From Candidatus Multivoradales bacterium (GTDB lineage Bacteria; Acidobacteriota; Thermoanaerobaculia; Multivoradales; J023), in contig CBDFLE010000004.1 of the NCBI GenBank assembly GCA_965248925.1, forward strand, positions 64,001 to 128,000: DNA of 64,000 nt, in the 5' to 3' direction. The position numbers and the translations under genes are program-made. Shown here piece by piece: positions 3,210 to 19,198 of this stretch. Position 1 is the stretch's first letter. Every line of letters starts with the position of its first letter. The notes under the pieces were generated by a model. That model made no database searches. It was not told the DNA's origin and worked only from the letters and a program-made list of their open reading frames with translations.

Positions 3210-3412
3210 TGGCGGATGATATCCGATTTTTAGCGGCAGCTGGTGCCACCGGCGCCTGGAAGGGTGAAGTCTTGGGGGTGTGAACTGCCTCTCAAATCGA
3301 CTGGGCCAGAACCAGGGGAGCACGGCACTCGACCATGGGCACCCGATACGAGCACCCATCGACGAGAAAGTGAACTTTACGAAGCTGAGAATCAGCAGCC
3401 GCTGCGGATGTT

Positions 3413-3437
3413 GCCGAGGCGGTAGGCACGTCGTTGG
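3413..3437. repeat. Post-immunity boundary motif, copy 3
   Basis: GCCGAGGCGGTAGGCACGTCGTTGG; 22/25 identical to 5780-5804. Confidence 0.8.
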
Positions 3438-3447
3438 GGACAGTACC

Positions 3448-3837
3448 CTACCGAGAGCGCCAACTAGCTTCAGGAACAGATCTTGCTACAACATCAATGC
3501 AATCATCATCTGTGAAAATTGCATAGTGAGTCAAGTCGAATTCTTCTAGCACGCCACCACTCTCTCTCTCAAGCCAAGCGACCCACTTAGAGTCTTCCAC
3601 TTCCAGGAGGCCCGGATGCGTCGGTGTTTCAAGCGTCCTCCAAGTCTCAAGCCTGTAACTCTCATCAATGCATCGGTATGCAACAACATCAGTAAATAAT
3701 AAGCGTAGAATATGTTCATTTGCTGTATCAATAAGTAAGAGTTCTAACCCGTCGGCTTCGTCCCTCAAGCTTAAAACGGTGAGTCTATGTGGGATGCCTG
3801 CAAGAGGGAGCCAGTCGCTATATTTCTCAACGTTCAC
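3448..3837 (-). CDS. Immunity protein for the distal orphan Rhs toxin
   Basis: 129 aa, acidic, lower GC, start overlaps the toxin stop by 1 nt. Confidence 0.8.
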   Translation of the reverse strand: MNVEKYSDWLPLAGIPHRLTVLSLRDEADGLELLLIDTANEHILRLLFTDVVAYRCIDESYRLETWRTLETPTHPGLLEVEDSKWVAWLERESGGVLEEFDLTHYAIFTDDDCIDVVARSVPEASWRSR

Positions 3838-5828
3838 TAATCCATCTCCAGAAATCGGATCTTAATCGGATTTGCTCCACCCTGAATCTCAAGCGTAGGC
3901 GAACCGGCTGAACTGCTCGGGCGAACAACAACTGTTCGGCCGTCGGGAAGTGTACCAACTCTGACGCCATTGCCCTTGTCCGTTACACCTTGAAGATGCA
4001 GTGCGTCAAAATCTGCGTTGGCTTGCTGAACTCCACCACTCCTCTCAAATTTCACTGCCCGGCCGTTTCTCATCTGGCCAGGATTTGTCCTCCTAGCGTC
4101 CGCGAGGATGTCATCTAGGCTCCCCCTTGGAACTGCGCGCGATCCCCGTTGAAAGACCTTACCAAGTCGAGCAAAGACAGCAGACAGCTTTGACCCAACA
4201 CTAGGAAGTGCTTTTCGAGTAACAGCGACAACAAGAGTCGTCTCGTCGACTGGCGAGAGAAGGCTGGCAGCAAACAGTGCTCCCATTCCCCGAGCATTGA
4301 TGTTCTCAATGTACTGCTCCTGGGTGATCTCGCCCCGCATCAAGCGCTGTATATCTTGTTCGAGAGCCATCGCCGCACGGCTTTCTCGCCCATTGGGGTC
4401 GATCTCGTTGATCGGGTTGTTTCCCGCATAGGAATAGCGGTTCCAGCTTCCCGGCGCGCTGGGCTTGGCGGACTTCGCCGGATCGACACTCAAGAACCGC
4501 CCCACCACCGGACTGCAATGCCGAGCATGCATGTAGTCCAGCTCGCTCCGGCTGCCTGTGCCCGTCTTGTCTCGCTCATGCCCTGTAAACTTCAGCTGGA
4601 TCTCGTCAGCTCCCGGGTTGGTCGCTTCCTGGCCAAACGGGTAATAGTTGTGCAGCGCCACCTGCTGACCACCCCGAGTGATCTGCCGAGGCGTACCTAA
4701 ATGATCAAGATGGAGATGTGAGGTCATCTCGCCACCGCTACCCTCGGGCTCGATGGTGGCGAGAGGCTGCCCGCCACGATGAACGTAGTCTCGGCTCCAG
4801 CCGAATGCGCCGCCAGCTGGCTGATCGTAGACCCGCAGAACCTCGTTCCCAAGCCCACGCAGGGTCCAGGTGAGGCTGGCGGGCTGGGTGGTGCAGGTGC
4901 TGGTGGCGCCGGGGCCGAAGCAGTCGAAGGTGAGGATCCGCTCGCCCTCTGCGTTGTAGATGTAGACCCGTGCTTGATCGGTGTTCGAGCGCAGGTGCTT
5001 CATCATGTTGGCGCCGTCGAAGGCATAGTCGAAGCTCTCGCTACCGAGGGTGATGTCGGTCAGATTGCCGGCCGCGTCGTATTGAGCGCCCGAGAGGCCG
5101 AGGCGATTGGTGGTGGCGTTGGGGTTGAGGTTGAGAGCCGCGAAACCGGGTGTTGATAGTTGCTGGATGTTGCCGAAATTGTCATAGGTCGCCGTCTGGG
5201 TGAACCGGGTGGCGCCGACGGAGGTCTGGCCGGAGCGTAATCGGCCGAGGCGGTCATAACGATAGTCCAGGTTGCCGATGGCGGAAATATTTCCAGCTCC
5301 GTCGTAGGCGAAGTTACCGCTGCTCCAGCCCGCAGAGGTGGTCAGCTGGTGCGGCCGGGCGAGGCCGTTCAAGCTGCTGACTTCTTGGCTGTCGACCACA
5401 CCATCGCCGTGGGTGAGCTGATGCAGCATGCCACCGCTCTGGTAGGTGAGGTTGTTGGCGAATCCAGGCACGGACCTGAGCATACCCTTTTCGTATTTGA
5501 AACTCACCGTGCGCTGCGGATCGTTGGTGGCACAGCCACCGTCGGCGTGCTGGCAGCTGGGGTAGTCGAGTTGCGACAAATTGCCCTGGGTGTCATACCC
5601 GAATCCCGTGGTGAAGGCGTAGTTGCCGGCGAAGAACTGGTAGCGAGTCTGCTTCTCCGACATCAAGCCCTGGCGACCGCTGTAGCGGAAGCTCTCGGAG
5701 AGCTTGACGTCGAGGGAGCCGGGCTCGGGGGCCAGGGGATTCTGGATGTCAACCCAGTTGTGGCGCACCGTCTGCACCAGCCGAGGCGGGTGGCACGTTG
5801 TTGGCATTGTTGCCGATGTGGGTGGCAT
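3837..5828 (-). CDS. Orphan Rhs module 2: YD repeats, Rhs core and C-terminal toxin
   Basis: HLDHLGTPR, FTGHERD, PVVGRFLSVDP, NNPINEIDPNG; tip ends GTLPDGRTVVVRPSSSAGSPTLEIQ…KIRF; N-terminally truncated copy of the main Rhs. Confidence 0.92.
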   Translation of the reverse strand: MPPTSATMPTTCHPPRLVQTVRHNWVDIQNPLAPEPGSLDVKLSESFRYSGRQGLMSEKQTRYQFFAGNYAFTTGFGYDTQGNLSQLDYPSCQHADGGCATNDPQRTVSFKYEKGMLRSVPGFANNLTYQSGGMLHQLTHGDGVVDSQEVSSLNGLARPHQLTTSAGWSSGNFAYDGAGNISAIGNLDYRYDRLGRLRSGQTSVGATRFTQTATYDNFGNIQQLSTPGFAALNLNPNATTNRLGLSGAQYDAAGNLTDITLGSESFDYAFDGANMMKHLRSNTDQARVYIYNAEGERILTFDCFGPGATSTCTTQPASLTWTLRGLGNEVLRVYDQPAGGAFGWSRDYVHRGGQPLATIEPEGSGGEMTSHLHLDHLGTPRQITRGGQQVALHNYYPFGQEATNPGADEIQLKFTGHERDKTGTGSRSELDYMHARHCSPVVGRFLSVDPAKSAKPSAPGSWNRYSYAGNNPINEIDPNGRESRAAMALEQDIQRLMRGEITQEQYIENINARGMGALFAASLLSPVDETTLVVAVTRKALPSVGSKLSAVFARLGKVFQRGSRAVPRGSLDDILADARRTNPGQMRNGRAVKFERSGGVQQANADFDALHLQGVTDKGNGVRVGTLPDGRTVVVRPSSSAGSPTLEIQGGANPIKIRFLEMD
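4480..5781. repeat. 1302-bp direct repeat of the rhs 3' region (partner 14555-15856)
   Basis: Same offset (10075) at both ends; near-identical protein from LVQTVRHNW to FLSVDP. Confidence 0.95.
5780..5804. repeat. Post-immunity boundary motif, copy 2
   Basis: GCCGAGGCGGGTGGCACGTTGTTGG; begins exactly where homology to the main rhs stops (5781). Confidence 0.8.
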
Positions 5829-5841
5829 GCCTGATGGAACC

Positions 5842-6300
5842 CTAGTCGGGCAGCGCCCTCAGAATATCCATGATGCCGGAGTAGTAGCTGCTCTCCTGTG
5901 GAGAAATCGATTTCATTTTGGAAAAAAAATGTAGGCCTGCCCTCTTGAAAGCTTCGAAAAATTCCATAGAGTACGCCTCAATTTCCTTTGATTCTCCATC
6001 CCACTCTAGCTTCATGACAACTCTCTGTGCCTTCTGAAAGTAGAGCACCGAGATGTCGATAGGCTGATCCGGGAAAGAAGTCGTGGCCTTCCCGTATTTC
6101 TTAGCTCTCGCAAGGCAGTCGACGACAAGTGACCAAAGCACTTCAATCAAGTCGCCATACTCTTCATCCATCAGTGTTCGAGAATCGCTGGAGACAAGAA
6201 GAACTCCGGCCAAGTACTCCGGGTCATGAATAAGCTGATCAAATTCATCCAAGGGAACAAAGTTCCCATTCTGTAGAAGAAGCGTACGAACAGAAACCAT
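5842..6300 (-). CDS. Immunity protein for orphan Rhs toxin 1
   Basis: 152 aa, low GC, TGATG overlap with the toxin stop. Confidence 0.8.
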   Translation of the reverse strand: MVSVRTLLLQNGNFVPLDEFDQLIHDPEYLAGVLLVSSDSRTLMDEEYGDLIEVLWSLVVDCLARAKKYGKATTSFPDQPIDISVLYFQKAQRVVMKLEWDGESKEIEAYSMEFFEAFKRAGLHFFSKMKSISPQESSYYSGIMDILRALPD

Positions 6301-7397
6301 CAGGCAGCACCTTCAGGAAATGCGGTGACGATTCGTCCGCGACGAACCACTACTCGATACACGATTCCATCAACGGTACCTCTCAAGACGACTCTCAAGT
6401 CGCTCCCTAACGCCATCCTGTTTCTGTTCTGCTGCAGCACGGCCCCAATTATCCCGGTGAGATCTTCGATCTTGCTACTGTCCGCAAAGAAACTCTGTAC
6501 TTTTGAGACTGACCCGTCCCAAAATTGGGGGTGATGCCGGCTCAAAATATGAGTCAGACCCTTGCGGTCAAGCTGAACAACGTTCTTTCCAAATCTGAAT
6601 CTTGTTGCTCGTATTCCTCGAGTTGCATTGGCGACTTTCTGTGGGCGAGCTACCCGAAGAAACAGCCTTGATGCCCGGGCAACCTTGACAGAAGCTGATG
6701 CTCCTCCAGGGATCCCAGGTACACTTGTCGCAGCTAAATCTAATGCGAGCGCTACGCTATCAACGATCACGCCACCTACATTTCCTGAGACGATATTCGT
6801 TGCCAAACTGGCAGTGCCGATGCTGACATTCGCTACATCCCAGACGGTTTCTATCGCCCGCCCATCCGGGTCGACAAAATTTATCGGACCGTTGGCACCG
6901 TATGTATATCGATTCCAGCTCTGTGGATGTGGAGTTGTGGCCGACTTCGCCGGATCCACACTCAAAAACCGCCCCACCACCGGGCTGCAATGCCGAGCAT
7001 GCATATAGTCCAGCTCGGAGCGGCTGCCGGTCCCGGTCTTGTCCCGCTCATGACCAGTGAATTTCAGCTGAATCTCATCCGCCCCCGAGTCGGTCGCCTC
7101 CTGGCCAAACGGGAAGTAGCCGTGCAACGCCACCTGCTGTCCGCCTCGGGTGAAGGGGACAGCCCGACGCGGTTTCCAGCTTGAGAGCTGGTAACCCTCT
7201 ATGCCTGTTCTACTTAAGCCTCGCTCGGCCCTACTGCCGGCGGGGTCTTGGTGCTCGAAGGTCCAGAGGCGAGTTTCGGCGTAGCTCGACTCGGAGATCG
7301 GCGCGATCGCTGTTGCCGGCATCGTCACCGCCAGGAGCGCGACGACCAGCCCGAGCGCCATCGTCCAAGTGCTTCTTCCTTTAGCTGCCTGCCTCAT
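6300..7397 (-). CDS. Signal-peptide leader fused in frame to orphan Rhs core and toxin 1 (probable RNase)
   Basis: Hydrophobic N-terminus MALGLVVALLAVTMPATA; Rhs core from TRGGQQVALH to NFVDPDG; tip has HILSRH…IVTAFP. Confidence 0.85.
   Translation of the reverse strand: MRQAAKGRSTWTMALGLVVALLAVTMPATAIAPISESSYAETRLWTFEHQDPAGSRAERGLSRTGIEGYQLSSWKPRRAVPFTRGGQQVALHGYFPFGQEATDSGADEIQLKFTGHERDKTGTGSRSELDYMHARHCSPVVGRFLSVDPAKSATTPHPQSWNRYTYGANGPINFVDPDGRAIETVWDVANVSIGTASLATNIVSGNVGGVIVDSVALALDLAATSVPGIPGGASASVKVARASRLFLRVARPQKVANATRGIRATRFRFGKNVVQLDRKGLTHILSRHHPQFWDGSVSKVQSFFADSSKIEDLTGIIGAVLQQNRNRMALGSDLRVVLRGTVDGIVYRVVVRRGRIVTAFPEGAA
6952..7153. repeat. 202-bp Rhs-core direct repeat (partner 14555-14756); terminal 32 bp identical
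   Basis: Offset 7603 at both ends; about 30 mismatches by manual count; 7122-7153 is identical to 14725-14756. Confidence 0.92.
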
Positions 7398-7478
7398 GCC
7401 GGGCCATTCTACGCCGCGGGTGGCGCTCGAAGACAGCGGCTAAAGGAGGAAGGGTGGTTGGTGCGGAGGCGGGATGCG

Positions 7479-7530
7479 GTTTTCTTAGGCCGCTTTCTTC
7501 GGGCAGTGGGTGTTTTCTTAGGTCGTTTTC
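7479..7530. repeat. Two 19-bp direct repeats, 33-bp period
   Basis: GTTTTCTTAGGCCGCTTTC (7479-7497) and GTTTTCTTAGGTCGTTTTC (7512-7530). Confidence 0.75.
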
Positions 7531-7861
7531 GTTGGGCTGGTCGTCGGAGCGAGCGCGGGTCTTTCCGGCAGTTTGGTGCCGGCGGCACAGAGGGCAGCCG
7601 CCAAACCAATCTGCACGTTGGGGGCGTGGTGGCGGCGGGGCCGGAGCCGAGCACGGCGACCGCAGGGCGCCGCGCGCAGGGTACGGAGGCCACGACGCAG
7701 GGCGGGTCTTGGGAGGAGGATGGGGAGCCCCCTTGAGGGGGCGGACGGGTCCGGGCCGAGCCGTCGCAGTGCAAGTCGGTGGATCTCGGCAAGGAGGCCA
7801 AGAGCGGGGCGTGCTTCCGAAGCCGCTGACCTTCGACGGCCACCAACGTGCTCGCCCCAAG

Positions 7862-7887
7862 TTTCCATAATGCACGCGTTATGGAAA
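7862..7887. other. dif/cer-like candidate tyrosine recombinase site
   Basis: TTTCCATAA-TGCACGCG-TTATGGAAA: perfect 9-bp arms, 8-bp spacer, CATAA/TTATG inner ends as in dif. Confidence 0.7.
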
Positions 7888-7923
7888 GGCCGTAGGCCCG
7901 GAGCCGGGGCGTGTGAGGGCCAG

Positions 7924-7949
7924 GTCGGATAGGGCGCGCACTATCCGAC
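7924..7949. other. Second 9-8-9 palindrome related to the first
   Basis: GTCGGATAG-GGCGCGCA-CTATCCGAC; central 16 bp (reverse complement) match site 1 at 12/16. Confidence 0.6.
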
Positions 7950-8183
7950 AGCGACCCATGCAAGCCGCGTGACATCTGGGAGGTCCGAGGAGGGGCCCAG
8001 GTGGCGCGCGGCTTGCGGAGCGGCTGGCCCGTGCCCGGAGGGAGCGCAGCGACCGGAGGGACACACGCCCCGGCGGAGCTTGGGGCGAGCTTTCGGAGAC
8101 TCTTTTCTTGGACTACCTGAAGCCTCGCTCCGGGCCGGTGATCGGAGGGCTCAGGTGGTGGATCGCAGATGCTCGGGCGGGGG

Positions 8184-16900: not shown

Positions 16901-19002
16901 CCGGTGCAGTCCACCGCCGTCGACTTGCGCAGGCTGCCACTGGCGTAGACGTGGTCGGTGCGGTAGGTCGGGCCGGACAAGCTGAGGCTGCACAAGGAGC
17001 CGGTGCCGAGGTTCTGGGTGTCGCCGCCATAGACCCGCTGGCGGGTGACGAAGCCGTTGCTCGAGGTGAGGAGGCTCACCACGTCGCGGCTCTGGCGATT
17101 GCTACCGGCCAGCTGGCGGCGGCGTTCGAGGAAGCCGGTGGTGCTGCTGAAGCAGAACTCAGCCTTCTCGGTGGTCCCGCCTTCGCTCACCGACTGCTCG
17201 TCCCAGGTCTCCAAGATCCAGCGTGCGTTGTGGCTTGGCAGCACGAAATCGGTTGCCGGATCGATCGAGCTGTCCTCGGGGTTGGCGATGATGTAGGTGC
17301 CGCTGTTGGCGTTGTAGGTGGTGCTGCTGGTGCGCACGTTGGCGGCGCCGAAGCTGCCGCCGGTGGTCATGGTGCGGAAGTGGCCCAGGCCATCGAAGTC
17401 CGAGAAGGTGACTTCGCGGACCTTGCCGCCGTCGTCGTGGAAGGTCTCCTTGCGGTAGCGCAAGCGGTGGGCTTTCTCGTTGTAGTTGCCGGCGTCGCGG
17501 CCATCGCTGTCGAACTCAACGAAGATCGAGCGGAGCTTGGTTCCGCCAGCGTTGAAGAGTTCTTGGGAAAGGAAGGGGCCGGCTTCTGAGAAGCTGCCAC
17601 TGATGGGATCGCAGTAGGTGTAGGGCAGGCCATAGGACCAGCGATTGTTGGCGCCGACGGTGGAGAAATAGCTCACCGTCTCGAAGCCCAGCGGATCAGT
17701 CACTTTCATCGAGTGGAAGCAGGGGTGGCCCAGCGGATCGCCGGGGGCTTGCGGGTTTGCGGTGTCGTAGGTGTAGCTCCAGGTGGCGTAGGGGGTGGTG
17801 TCGCCGTCGTCGAGGAAGAGATGCTTGCTCTTGACTCCCCGCGCCACCGTGCCCCAATCGGGAGCGTGGAAGAGGTCGGCCAGCTGGGTTTGGAAGGGGA
17901 AGAGCTGGTAGTCGTAGCCGTAGGCGCCGCCGGTGGGCAAGCGCAGCTTCGACAAGCCGCCCGAGAGCAGGTTGTCGACAGTCAGGTAGTCCATCTCGTA
18001 GAACGAACCGTCGGGCAACACCACCCGGTCGAGCACCTGGGTGGTGAGGGTGTGCTCGGCTATCGGCACGCAGCCGGGACGGAAGCCGAACTGCCGTTCT
18101 AGAGTTTCGGTGCGGTACTGAAAGAGGAAGGTCGAGTTGCTTTGGCTGCCGAAGGCTTCGAGCCTCACCGTAGCGACTCTGCCACCGACAAAATCCACCG
18201 TGTGAGTGCGCCCTTGGCTGTCGGTCAATGTCCAGTCGCCATCGTTGGCATAGCGCACATTGATCCAATTGCCGAAGCGATCCTCCATCCGCGTCAGGCG
18301 CCAGAGATCGCCGACGGAGGCGTAGTTATGGAACTCATGCAGCTCGCCGCCAGAAAATTCTACCGTGTAGCAGCTCTGATCGACAAAGGTGCCAGACGGC
18401 AGCTCGCACACCCCCGGATTGCGCTTGCGTAGACGGAGGTACGTGCTGTCGTTGGTGAACCAGGTGCTGGGCTGCGGTGTCGCCGGGAAGCCGCCGGGAT
18501 GCAGCTCGGTATAAAACCTGTGCTCGCCGCCACTTGGATCGACGTAAATCTCAGGCGTTGTCGTCGGACTGTTACGTGGCGCGATCAGCTCTCCTAGGCT
18601 GACTCTCCAGCCGAAGCCGGCCTGCGTCTTGAGATCCTGGATCGGCAGGCTGTAGGTACGCAGCGCGAAGGGCGGATTGATGTCTTGACATTGGTGATTC
18701 TCATCGTACTCCCAGCCACCGGAGCTGTACGAGGCGGTCAGGCTGAAGCTGAGCGACGGGCCGACCGGATAGGTGATGCCGATCGGTAGAGATACGGTCA
18801 GGCTGCCGTTGAAGAGATTGATCTGATCCAGGTCGCCAATCTGGTAGGCGGTGTCGGCGGTCACTCCGCGCTGGTGGCTCGGGGGGAGTTGCGCGGTCAG
18901 CGGCAGGGCGATGCAGAGGCCGAGAAGTAAGAAGCTGAGAGGCAGAATCTGCCACGTCTGAAGTAGGAGATATTCGGTACTGAGGAAAAATTTTCGGTGC
19001 AT
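13912..19002 (-). CDS. Full-length Rhs/YD-repeat polymorphic toxin with Sec-type signal peptide
   Basis: YD repeats, HLDHLGTPR…PVVGRFLSVDP…VDPDGR core; N-terminal FLLLGLCIALPLTAQ; tip ends YGG…DWAK…FEVHAY…ELKTK. Confidence 0.95.
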   Translation of the reverse strand: MHRKFFLSTEYLLLQTWQILPLSFLLLGLCIALPLTAQLPPSHQRGVTADTAYQIGDLDQINLFNGSLTVSLPIGITYPVGPSLSFSLTASYSSGGWEYDENHQCQDINPPFALRTYSLPIQDLKTQAGFGWRVSLGELIAPRNSPTTTPEIYVDPSGGEHRFYTELHPGGFPATPQPSTWFTNDSTYLRLRKRNPGVCELPSGTFVDQSCYTVEFSGGELHEFHNYASVGDLWRLTRMEDRFGNWINVRYANDGDWTLTDSQGRTHTVDFVGGRVATVRLEAFGSQSNSTFLFQYRTETLERQFGFRPGCVPIAEHTLTTQVLDRVVLPDGSFYEMDYLTVDNLLSGGLSKLRLPTGGAYGYDYQLFPFQTQLADLFHAPDWGTVARGVKSKHLFLDDGDTTPYATWSYTYDTANPQAPGDPLGHPCFHSMKVTDPLGFETVSYFSTVGANNRWSYGLPYTYCDPISGSFSEAGPFLSQELFNAGGTKLRSIFVEFDSDGRDAGNYNEKAHRLRYRKETFHDDGGKVREVTFSDFDGLGHFRTMTTGGSFGAANVRTSSTTYNANSGTYIIANPEDSSIDPATDFVLPSHNARWILETWDEQSVSEGGTTEKAEFCFSSTTGFLERRRQLAGSNRQSRDVVSLLTSSNGFVTRQRVYGGDTQNLGTGSLCSLSLSGPTYRTDHVYASGSLRKSTAVDCTGTAILTLADYDIDSDTGLVATSRDAAGLGTSFTYDRLGRLTGQRPAELGWTQWTYTLPTTANPGLAPKLTEQQCQPFQTSCSGTDLMSFREHRYDGLGRRLQETVRIPVANAGQTELWHRYTTWNPRHWKTDESVWTTASAAGESRRTTYLAYDRFGRPGRVKPPEQPATFFTYQGDRVQTRRFKVQLTSGQQDTYVTEIMDGQGRLAEVCEGSSAAWSGSCGGGGLLTRYSYDDGGRLTKVCQNLSGSTCGQTRLFDYDGRGFLLSETHPEIGPSGNGRIDYRFDAGGNAISKDLIGSTAFDLSFDFDAAGRLIRVLESSNGVGSTPRLQKQFRYARTNSGSDHRAGKLVQTVRHNWVDIQNPLAPEPGSLDVKLSESFRYTGRQGLMSEKQTRYQFFAGNYAFTTGFVYDTQGNLSQLDYPSCQHADGGCATNDPQRTVNFNYEKGMLRSVPGFANNLTYQSGGMLHQLTHGDGVVDTQEVSSSNGLARPHQLTTSAGWSSGIFAYDGAGNISAIGNLDYRYDRLGRLRSGQTSVGATRFTQTATYDNFGNIQQLSTPGFAALNLNPNATTNRLGLSGAQYDAAGNLTDITLGSESFDYAFDGANMMKHLRSNTDQARVFIYNASDERILTFDCFGPGATSTCTTQPASLTWTLRGLGNEVLRVYDQPAGGAFSWSRDYVHRGGQPLATIEPEGSGGEMTSHLHLDHLGTPRQITRGGQQVALHNYYPFGQEATNLAQDEVVLKFTGHERDKTGTGVRSELDYMHARHCSPVVGRFLSVDPSLGSRSSPQSWNRFSYVSNSPINQVDPDGRLGFLVTAFLGGVVDVGIQIASNALSGEELTTGVAGAFVTGAVAGATGLGLLKVAGRGAKLVGAVRNAKKLKKSAAAADAARAGADGTAGARSAANRLRLQKQLASEQQVGELANGGGRTIAGAGGRVPIRDVDRLARQYGGSRGDWAKIRSSNFKAADGASFEVHAYRNVRTGEIVELKTKFQ

Positions 19003-19198
19003 CTCTTCACCCTTCCGTTGGTTTGGCGGCTTGGTTGCCTCCAGGGCAGCAAGTGCCAGCATTTGCTTACACTATCTATAGGCGCAGGAAGAGCCAAGAA
19101 GTTACAAGCTTTCATTATTTGGTGGTTTCTACTGTAGTTTTTCCAGATTTGCGTCACCGAGAGAGCTGCAATCGGTGCCTTGGGGCCTAGCCCCCCGC

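Follow-up and report, generated by a model that had tools for sequence, protein, structure and literature searches.

Described routes of toxin-tip exchange

Exchange of C-terminal toxin tips by displacement, with orphan tip-immunity modules left behind, is reportedly known for Rhs genes from a 2014 study by Koskiniemi. Here, we analyze a 7603-bp block within an Rhs locus of a Candidatus Multivoradales bacterium, at positions 7154-14756 of a 64,000-nt stretch (the window; C4:64001-128000 of the 7.98-Mb, six-contig host genome, G000). The block is likely to be an integrative element, probably capable of replication, through which Rhs tips are exchanged in frame via site-specific recombination. 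In the displacement study by Jackson 2009 (PMC2935791), a new tip with its immunity gene similarly replaces the expressed one, old tips accumulate downstream as orphans with core fragments, and the model involves homologous recombination only. Unlike in classical displacement, the incoming tip is here linked to a recombinase/primase backbone, the joint is fixed and has inverted-repeat arms, and the displaced tip gains a leader open reading frame (ORF). Orphan C of the window and an array of seven orphans (C6:2440-2457k) are of the classical kind.

Xer-type genes have been described beside arrays of toxin and immunity cassettes, namely XerC/D genes next to polyimmunity loci (Zhang 2012, PMC3482391) and recombinases in Bacteroidales immunity arrays (PMC12247911), and it has been suggested that accumulation is driven by them. 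Going by these partial descriptions, the locus considered here differs in having an autonomous element with a primase-nucleoside triphosphatase (primase-NTPase), a repressor, a leader, and an in-frame tip fusion. SymE genes beside an Rhs-type toxin have been interpreted as a toxin-antitoxin pair (PMC7764402). A 2025 preprint that treats the Rhs toxins of four genera of plant pathogens, including Ralstonia (10.1101/2025.05.08.652813), lacks the words recombinase, primase, XerC, integrase, mobile, and SymE. No description of an element of this kind was found in the searchable literature, to which supplements do not belong; this covers passages of Zhang 2012 (PMC3482391), PMC10210955, PMC7764402, PMC3942780, 10.64898/2026.07.13.738213, and 10.1101/2025.05.08.652813. 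Additional File 1 of Zhang 2012 may list such neighbourhoods. Overlap is possible with Martinkus 2026 (Current Biology), which is said to deal with Rhs poly-immunity arrays and is reportedly cited for "Xer-dependent recombination systems".

Integrative elements residing at gene ends, such as SGI1-type islands at trmE (PMC8409611) and tycheposons (10.1101/2020.12.28.424599), share with the block, as far as the excerpted descriptions go, a tyrosine recombinase, an attachment (att) site inside a gene, a borne gene end, often a replication module, and tandem arrays. Their gene end restores the same function, whereas the replacement end here is the payload, a different toxin domain with its immunity gene. 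Phage 21/e14 in icd likewise integrates at a gene end and carries the replacement end. As in integrons, promoterless cassettes would be captured site-specifically beside an expressed position, and silent cassettes stored; unlike in integrons, no attC-type hairpins were found, the cassette carries its own recombinase and replication genes, and the recombinase is not an integron integrase (100.6 bits vs. the TIGR02249 cut-off of 265). The CTX-phi/RS1 arrays, too, combine an RstR-like repressor divergent from the replication genes with Xer-type recombination and tandem arrays, and the repressor candidate found here matches the RstR family. Unlike CTX-phi/RS1, the element has no phage morphogenesis genes, has its own recombinase, and targets an Rhs gene, not dif.

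Element copies and linkage phase

The initial annotation had placed the block between exact 32-bp direct repeats within the Rhs core, and both the coordinates and the spacing were reproduced: the repeat, TCACCCGAGGCGGACAGCAGGTGGCGTTGCAC, occupies 7122-7153 and 14725-14756 on the minus strand, 7603 bp apart, within the last ~95 codons of the core. It reflects homology among Rhs paralogs rather than chance. The minus strand carries, in the annotated order, the Rhs gene, immunity A, two SymE-like genes, the primase-NTPase, the recombinase, an intergenic region, the leader with tip B, immunity B, orphan C, and immunity C; the helix-turn-helix (HTH) gene, which had been included in this series, lies on the plus strand and is divergent (Table 1). 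The Rhs gene has the features of a polymorphic toxin, that is, RHS/YD repeats, an Rhs-associated core, a variable tip, and an immunity gene downstream. We read it as the expressed copy, and its final ~280 codons (core end and tip A, 13912-14756) as the element cargo. In orphan B, homology to the Rhs core begins exactly at the first base of the repeat, the sequence upstream being the unrelated leader, and backbone homology among copies begins 9 nt past the stop codon of immunity A. The block has the attributes of a site-specific integrative element, namely a recombinase gene and flanking direct repeats at a conserved target.

The host genome contains 14 element copies, 12 of them at the identical Rhs position. 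Its 14 recombinase genes (81-100% identity) are each paired with one of 14 primase genes; no recombinase ORF is truncated, and the primase ORF is intact in 13 copies and split by an insertion sequence (IS) of the IS21 family in the remaining one. We found 26 genomic sites with at most six mismatches to the 32-mer, 12 of them behind a leader and 14 behind an Rhs core. The last 45 nt of the leader are identical in all 12 leader-preceded sites, and over window 7200-7399, 11 of the 12-13 other copies that aligned match the leader region at 100% identity. All main Rhs ORFs and all leader ORFs of this genome are open across the joint, and in the 26 junction-bearing tips only the last ~100 residues vary, followed by different downstream ORFs.

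Behind Rhs paralogs, the copies form arrays of seven units on C5 (921.9-984.7 kb) and three units on C6 (3495.9-3518.8 kb); single-unit loci are found at C6:1342.7-1350.3 kb and in the window. Two diverged copies have the same leader end. One, at C4:260107, has a mid-gene Rhs join and a 2435-bp repeat at 95.6% identity, and the other, at C6:3629597, a 3091-bp repeat at 98.4% that covers the tip, the immunity gene, and the HTH gene. Every joint has the leader end as its constant side, and the position within the toxin gene varies. Element-free Rhs paralogs are also present in the genome; the one at C6:2440027-2458157 precedes seven orphans of the classical kind, whose core fragments differ in length and which come without element genes.

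The linkage of tips to backbones can be read from repeated units. The C5 array comprises two units of tip t1 with backbone bb-alpha, one of t3, two of t4, and two of t5; units 6 and 7 are 100% identical over 7854 bp, and units 1/2 and 4/5 are identical except for an IS21 insertion. Unit 1 of the C6 array equals unit 2 of the C5 array (100% over 7542 bp), and the Rhs genes before that joint are 96.8% identical over 4186 bp and unrelated further out. In the relative G016, the order is main-t1-A-t1-A-t2-B-t2-B-truncated, that is, two t1-A units followed by two t2-B units. This pattern indicates that the tip upstream of a backbone travels with the backbone and the immunity gene, and that the downstream tip does not. 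The phase that had been proposed, core end-tip-immunity-backbone-leader, recurs duplicated or shared in this genome, in G016, and in Escherichia coli (see below). The core-end motifs contrasted by the initial annotation, ADEIQLK/GSRSE/DPAKSA in orphans B and C vs. QDEVVLK/GVRSE/DPSLGS in the main gene, are present, but this contrast was rejected as a sign of origin and by itself discriminates nothing, since elsewhere in the genome each type is found in either context.

Units often occur as exact or near-exact tandem pairs (C5:921918-937625, other arrays, C50 of G016, and loci L057, L058, L074, L083, L087, and L090). They may have arisen from integration of dimeric circles or by unequal crossing-over.

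The joint and the leader end

The joint in the window, GCTGTCCCCTT-CACCCG-AGGCGGACAGC, has 11-nt arms with a 9/11 inverted-repeat match around 6 nt. In G016, whose recombinase is 82% identical to that of the window, the joint is a perfect 11-6-11 site, GCTGTTCCCCT-GTCCCA-AGGGGAACAGC, and the joint of G009 scores 9/11; among random positions scanned in the same way, only 0.7% score at least 9. In all three cases, homology between the leader-side and Rhs-side copies begins at the central region. Judging by these features, the leader/toxin joint looks like an Xer-type site.

A joint within the Rhs core, as initially supposed, is present in 12 copies of this genome; related elements join at other positions of the toxin gene. 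The G016 joint lies outside the core, at a VPRG motif directly before the toxin domain, and the stretch common to its successive tips t1 and t2 is only GTCCCAAGGGG, 11 nt. The joint of Ralstonia solanacearum Po82 lies right where the core ends and is followed by ~50 common nt at ~65% identity. RecA recombination is ruled out for these two joints, as the shared stretches are too short or too diverged.

The last 75-100 nt before the joint are conserved across phyla as a DNA block with TAAGT, a TAGGGAAA-like box, TACGACGG, and GCGTCGGG. This block acts as DNA, because the reading frame of GCGTCGGG differs among lineages. No Rfam match above chance was found in window 7000-8300, and RNAalifold yielded no consensus structure or hairpin for 18 aligned leader ends; hairpins spotted by eye were rejected as inconsistent across lineages.

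The sequence GT(T/A)CCAAGGGGG, coding for VPRG, is also found at the linker/toxin boundary of two tips, orphan C (window ~4110-4150) and a tip at C5:921384. It is nearly identical to the G016 att core GTCCCAAGGGG and may mark a second swapping point within tips.

Distribution across bacteria

Full-length relatives are present in five of 40 related genomes, four from the family of the host (G009, G011, G013, and G016) and one from another family (G033). In the species-representative collection, 574 stretches matched, 544 encode a relative, and 77 loci were kept; these come from at least six phyla, with 58-74% identity over ~1000 residues of the primase. They cover Acidobacteriota including Thermoanaerobaculia (the class of G016), Gamma-, Beta-, and Deltaproteobacteria/Myxococcota, Nitrospirales, Gemmatimonadales, Chloroflexi, and Bacteroidia. 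Many relatives lie on 4-9-kb contigs, as is typical of repeated elements. A recombinase match longer than 150 aa follows the primase gene in 84 of 88 cases, the remaining four being at contig ends.

To locate core ends, we used an Rhs core-end profile built over three rounds and counted only same-strand matches. Of the 35 elements whose upstream flank spans at least 3.5 kb, 26 have a core end upstream, and of the 40 with at least 2 kb downstream, 27 have one within 3 kb after the recombinase. The initial annotation had proposed to test whether homologous primase/recombinase loci are always flanked by Rhs core repeats, and the outcome is positive for most of the 25 elements having both flanks: core ends lie on both sides of 15 and on one side or both of 22. 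The elements without a match include those with G016-type joints outside the core. Among relatives, the joint positions are spread over the last ~100 core residues, and tandem arrays are common.

Of the features that define PICI/P4-like phage satellites, an integrase, a repressor, and a primase-replicase are present; the 7.6 kb leave no room for packaging genes. The PHROGs matches are limited to generic primases, integrases, and repressors. In phage records only the N-terminal part of the primase is matched, at less than 30% identity; one IMG/VR contig holds a good relative.

Among plasmids, 208 PLSDB records match an element protein. The circular 11,289-bp 'plasmid unnamed1' of Lonsdalea populi N-5-1 (NZ_CP072857.1) encodes xerC, primase, HTH, SymE, and DinJ/RelE. 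It has two leader-joined modules of core end, tip, and immunity gene: one with a DNA/RNA endonuclease tip and an NTF2-fold immunity gene, the other with an HNH tip, in a second unit whose primase is truncated. In each, a short core end (profile positions 48-76) and leader-like DNA come before the tip; the plasmid has no upstream Rhs core and no other replication gene. This is the content that had been predicted for the circle, with the caveat on assembly discussed below. On the R. solanacearum Po82 megaplasmid, the order is Rhs-tip-HTH-primase-xerC-short core end-tip. The main and the displaced tips both occur only in the same six near-identical megaplasmids, so Po82 offers no empty-site comparator.

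In E. coli, xerC and primase DNA is found in 56 of 5426 complete genomes, at a median of four places, all chromosomal. Strains S10 and KW21 can be compared at one locus (ansP...vgrG-DcrB-Rhs...ISEc1). In S10, Rhs is joined to a HYD1 ADP-ribosyltransferase (ART) tip, followed by the immunity gene, SymE/HTH, primase, and xerC. In KW21, Rhs carries another tip and Imm8, and the same ART-immunity-backbone block is displaced behind a ~40-nt leader-end remnant. The ART tip is present in 45 E. coli genomes and the DNA downstream of the element in 113, 63 of the latter being partial matches.

In one of these genomes, that of strain 104, a single SymE gene follows each Rhs tip and each orphan at the rhsC locus (L122), and ISAs1/H-rpt copies are interleaved with them. 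This arrangement points to an origin of the SymE genes at E. coli Rhs loci as remnants or scars of the element. On a Salmonella Rubislaw plasmid (L116, CP074295.1, 92.7-105.4 kb), HTH-primase-xerC and ParD/RelE lie directly upstream of cdiB/cdiA, and the family may also serve contact-dependent inhibition toxins.

Proposed mechanism and alternatives

What was observed is the anatomy of the element, its copy number and distribution, the phase in which tips are linked, and the conserved junction; the mechanism that we propose builds on these. The cargo would be the 3' end of an Rhs gene, that is, the last ~95 core codons, the toxin tip, and the immunity gene. The circular form would run leader, att, core end, tip, immunity gene, HTH, two SymE-like genes, primase-NTPase, XerC-like recombinase, palindromes, and back to the leader. 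The recombinase would excise the element and exchange strands within the 6-7-nt central TCACCCG, between the leader-end arm and the Rhs-frame arm (codons TRGGQ). A single crossover with a chromosomal Rhs gene would join the tip of the cargo, in frame, to the Rhs shell already present, and the old tip would end up behind the element, fused to the leader ORF and its new start codon. The one-crossover swap of the initial annotation is supported, the most likely place for the crossover being the central region at the 5' edge of the repeat. We infer that the primase-NTPase replicates the element, that the HTH and SymE-like proteins regulate it, and that expression of displaced immunity genes is maintained from the leader. 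Orphan arrays would build up through repeated rounds of integration and through duplication in tandem, followed by decay by IS insertions and backbone deletions.

A number of observations weigh against this mechanism. Identity between the matching C5 and C6 units stops within 10 nt past the right joint but extends ~650 nt upstream of the left one (first differences at -650, -884, and -890), the backbone is composed, mosaic-like, of blocks with 100% and blocks with 90-96% identity, and no junction-spanning palindrome above the control was found in 19 junctions outside the close clade, so that a general junction palindrome across distant relatives was rejected. Over all 23 junctions, the mean best arm match is 6.2/11, vs. 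5.8 at random positions. The chromosomal partner (attB) has the right arm only, that is, one good arm, and attL and attR at C6:1342651 differ in 5 of 32 positions, one of them within the proposed central region. The NTPase half has no recognizable helicase family, and PDB sequence and profile searches returned nothing for it. The S10 Rhs/ART joint is 1 nt out of frame: one G is missing relative to KW21 (L123, 17810-17836) and the fusion is annotated as frameshifted, which may reflect either an error of sequencing or true inactivation. In Lonsdalea, the circle could be a tandem array closed by the assembler. An 8,758-bp circular Shigella record, considered as an excised unit, was rejected and is not counted as support, because its closure is at ISEc1 instead of the joint, and because Rhs core precedes a joint in it. 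No circle joint or empty-site joint was seen in the assembled contigs of four runs from one host sample, which is uninformative either way, as contigs drop rare forms; the sole joint there (skipping 7852-8066) matches another genomic copy. The backbone depth is ~8-10 times that of unique cargo in three of these runs and ~3.5 times in the fourth (X3). It does not exceed the assembled copy number, and the coverage comparison proposed by the initial annotation gave no sign of a high-copy plasmid.

The alternative that survives best, although we consider it unlikely, is a (former) small replicon that entered Rhs loci by RecA crossover in the ~230-290-bp core-end homology and spread by unequal crossing-over and gene conversion among Rhs paralogs. 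Tips would then be swapped, but not site-specifically, and the XerC-like enzyme would merely resolve multimers, e.g. at the intergenic palindrome P2. The upstream extension of the C5/C6 identity, the mosaic backbone, the exact tandem pairs, and the distant relatives without a junction palindrome all fit this scenario, as do the palindromes P1 and P2 themselves, which are AT-rich, have the Xer-like 9-8-9 geometry, and keep their position and dyad symmetry, with changed sequence, in G016 and G009. It is contradicted by the G016 and Po82 joints, formed on the short or diverged common stretches given above, by the leader end that stays fixed at every joint while the toxin-gene position varies, and by the perfect 11-6-11 site straddling the G016 joint. 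Still, the C5/C6 identity reaching ~650 nt into the core implies that at least that copy spread with homologous recombination or gene conversion. Both processes appear clearly to be at work between paralogs, and homologous recombination is a second spreading force beside site-specific swapping.

That the copies are immobile, decaying remnants in old arrays, retained for useful tips or immunity genes, is very improbable: several copies do carry IS3- and IS21-family insertions, P1 and P2 are deleted in two array-terminal copies, and a 390-bp left-end remnant exists at C6:4017.2k, but the recombinase and primase ORFs are preserved as described, units are 100% identical over 7.5-7.9 kb, and the primase retains 58-74% identity across phyla. 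The opposite phase, with the leader-fused tip B as cargo of an element inserted 3' of an existing tip-immunity pair, tip A as resident, and nothing swapped on the expressed gene, is the least credible, for although the leader ORF supplies the downstream tip with a start codon and a signal-peptide-like N-terminus and precedes the tip in any circle, so that the circle form alone cannot separate the phases, identical backbones share the upstream tip but differ in the downstream one, the ART tip, immunity gene, and backbone are contiguous in S10 and KW21 with a changing upstream context, the required insertion points behind unrelated immunity genes have no conserved sequence, and the inverted-repeat site at the joint would be left without a role.

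Returning to site-specific swapping, we tentatively extend it to the arrays, which may be a working cassette library, the recombinase excising any run of units as a circle and re-inserting it at the expressed Rhs gene. That any run could be excised would follow from every joint being a directly repeated copy of one recombination site. The primase-NTPase would sustain the circle, exact tandem pairs may be integrated dimers, and the lineage would cycle through the stored toxins that it fires, the leader keeping the immunity genes of displaced cassettes translated. If so, this would be a self-replicating, integron-like system of toxin switching and delivery in at least six phyla including E. coli, and it might explain many classical Rhs orphans and adjacent SymE genes as its footprints.

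The gain of polymorphic-toxin tips has so far been ascribed to homologous recombination with incoming DNA of unknown vehicle. The element would be a concrete vehicle for Rhs tips, with defined genes and a defined joint, and since its range extends from Acidobacteriota to E. coli, a model organism is available for testing the question. Two peculiarities noticed long ago, the orphan modules that carry short core fragments and the presence of SymE, XerC, or primase genes next to Rhs, could be reinterpreted as parts or scars of the element. If the recombinase and the site work as we read them, they constitute an in-frame gene-end replacement system.

Backbone genes and other features of the window

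The recombinase belongs to the XerC-like subfamily (NCBIfam NF002331 'XerC', 429.4 bits vs. the cut-off of 371). The catalytic R..K..HxxR..H..Y motifs are recognizable by eye in the translation as GMRRAEL, GKGRK, HLFRH, and LGHAKLETTQIYTQV. It is not the chromosomal XerC, as it scores 219 bits vs. 335 with TIGR02224 and exists in 14 element-borne copies vs. the single copy expected. The primase-NTPase consists of a DnaG-type primase half fused to a conserved C-terminal P-loop NTPase half that matches no assigned family, and homology to relatives starts from about residue 45. Although the DnaG domains are present, it is not the bacterial DnaG (TIGR01391, only 157 bits vs. 283.6); the DnaG-like gene of the host is a separate match with 27% identity.

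The HTH gene is divergent from the SymE-primase-recombinase operon, and its type differs among copies (27-100% identity). Together with a promoter-like TTGACG-17-TAGAAT at 12885-12913, this resembles the layout of a repressor switch. The two SymE-like proteins fall below the NCBIfam SymE equivalog (26.7 and 28.9 bits vs. 132) and are treated as predicted AbrB-fold DNA or RNA binders. The palindromic sites noted initially are real: P1 is GTCGGATAG-N8-CTATCCGAC (7924-7949) and P2 is TTTCCATAA-N8-TTATGGAAA (7862-7887), both on the minus strand. Their region is a candidate origin, operator, or resolution site.

Table 1. Features of the Rhs locus and the element (window positions).
Feature	Position	Strand	Match or remark
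Immunity C	3448-3837	-	
Orphan C, long classical type, 663 aa	3837-5828	-	
Immunity B	5842-6300	-	
Displaced core end and tip B	6300-7153	-	weak Ntox10/EndoU matches; translated from the leader start codon
Orphan B ORF (leader, core end, tip B)	6300-7397	-	
attR: left arm GCTGTCCCCT 7154-7163; central TCACCCG 7147-7153; right arm AGGCGGACAGC 7136-7146	7122-7163	-	proposed
Leader: ATG at 7397, signal-peptide-like start, conserved DNA block ending GCGTCGGGCTGTCCCCT	7154-7397	-	
Intergenic region, 786 nt, palindromes P1 and P2	7398-8183	-	
XerC-like tyrosine recombinase, 357 aa	8184-9257	-	Phage_integrase PF00589, 2e-36
Primase-NTPase, 1054 aa	9257-12421	-	CHC2 zinc finger, DNAG_N, Toprim
SymE/AbrB-fold protein 2	12277-12540	-	Pfam SymE_toxin, 46.4 bits vs. 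29
SymE/AbrB-fold protein 1	12494-12790	-	Pfam SymE_toxin, 31.7 bits vs. 29
HTH gene, Xre/RstR-like repressor candidate	12837-13331	+	HTH_3, 1e-14; RstR family, 75.6 bits vs. 80
Element backbone left end: motif GGTGCCAACCGTTTCGCAG, hairpin AAAGCCCGGC..GCCGGGCTTT	13498-13557	-	
Immunity A, 107 aa	13566-13889	-	family-less; one copy in the genome
Rhs gene, 1716 aa	13912-19062	-	RHS_repeat; TIGR03696 Rhs_assc_core, 54.3 bits vs. cut-off 32.5
attL: left copy of the 32-nt repeat; central TCACCCG 14750-14756; right arm AGGCGGACAGC 14739-14749	14725-14756	-	proposed

The Rhs gene at 13912-19062 starts with a signal-peptide-like segment, as read by eye. Orphan C and immunity C (3448-5828) are an older displacement with no element attached. 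The locus is flanked by housekeeping genes, namely those of a patatin-like lipase, a SpoU methylase, and trigger factor; as to delivery, the lipase and methylase genes are the neighbours in the window, and the E. coli relatives adjoin vgrG.

Insertions of IS3-family (1.7 kb) and IS21-family (2.9 kb) elements in the copies are located at C5:938265-939969, 947589-949293, 949539-952438, and 977238-980138, and the IS3 copies adjoin palindrome P2. The left-end remnant at C6:4017229-4017613 (390 bp; HTH C-terminus and terminator) follows the tip/immunity pair of an element-free Rhs gene and looks like a scar after loss of the backbone.

The motif family GTGCCAnCCnnnTCG(G/C)(C/A)A recurs directly 3' of immunity genes, both within elements and at the ends of Rhs arrays (window 13524-13556, 5780-5840, and 3400-3447; C6:1745307, 1750126, 4017219, 893416, and 3520.0k), and a longer common flank, GTGCCACCCACCTCGGCAACATCCACTACGGCCGCTG.., is present at the ends of several Rhs loci. 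The motif and the flank could be a second recombination site or a regulatory site bounding the cassette; a second recombination site 3' of immunity genes (GTGCCAnCC..TCG) is raised here purely as an idea.

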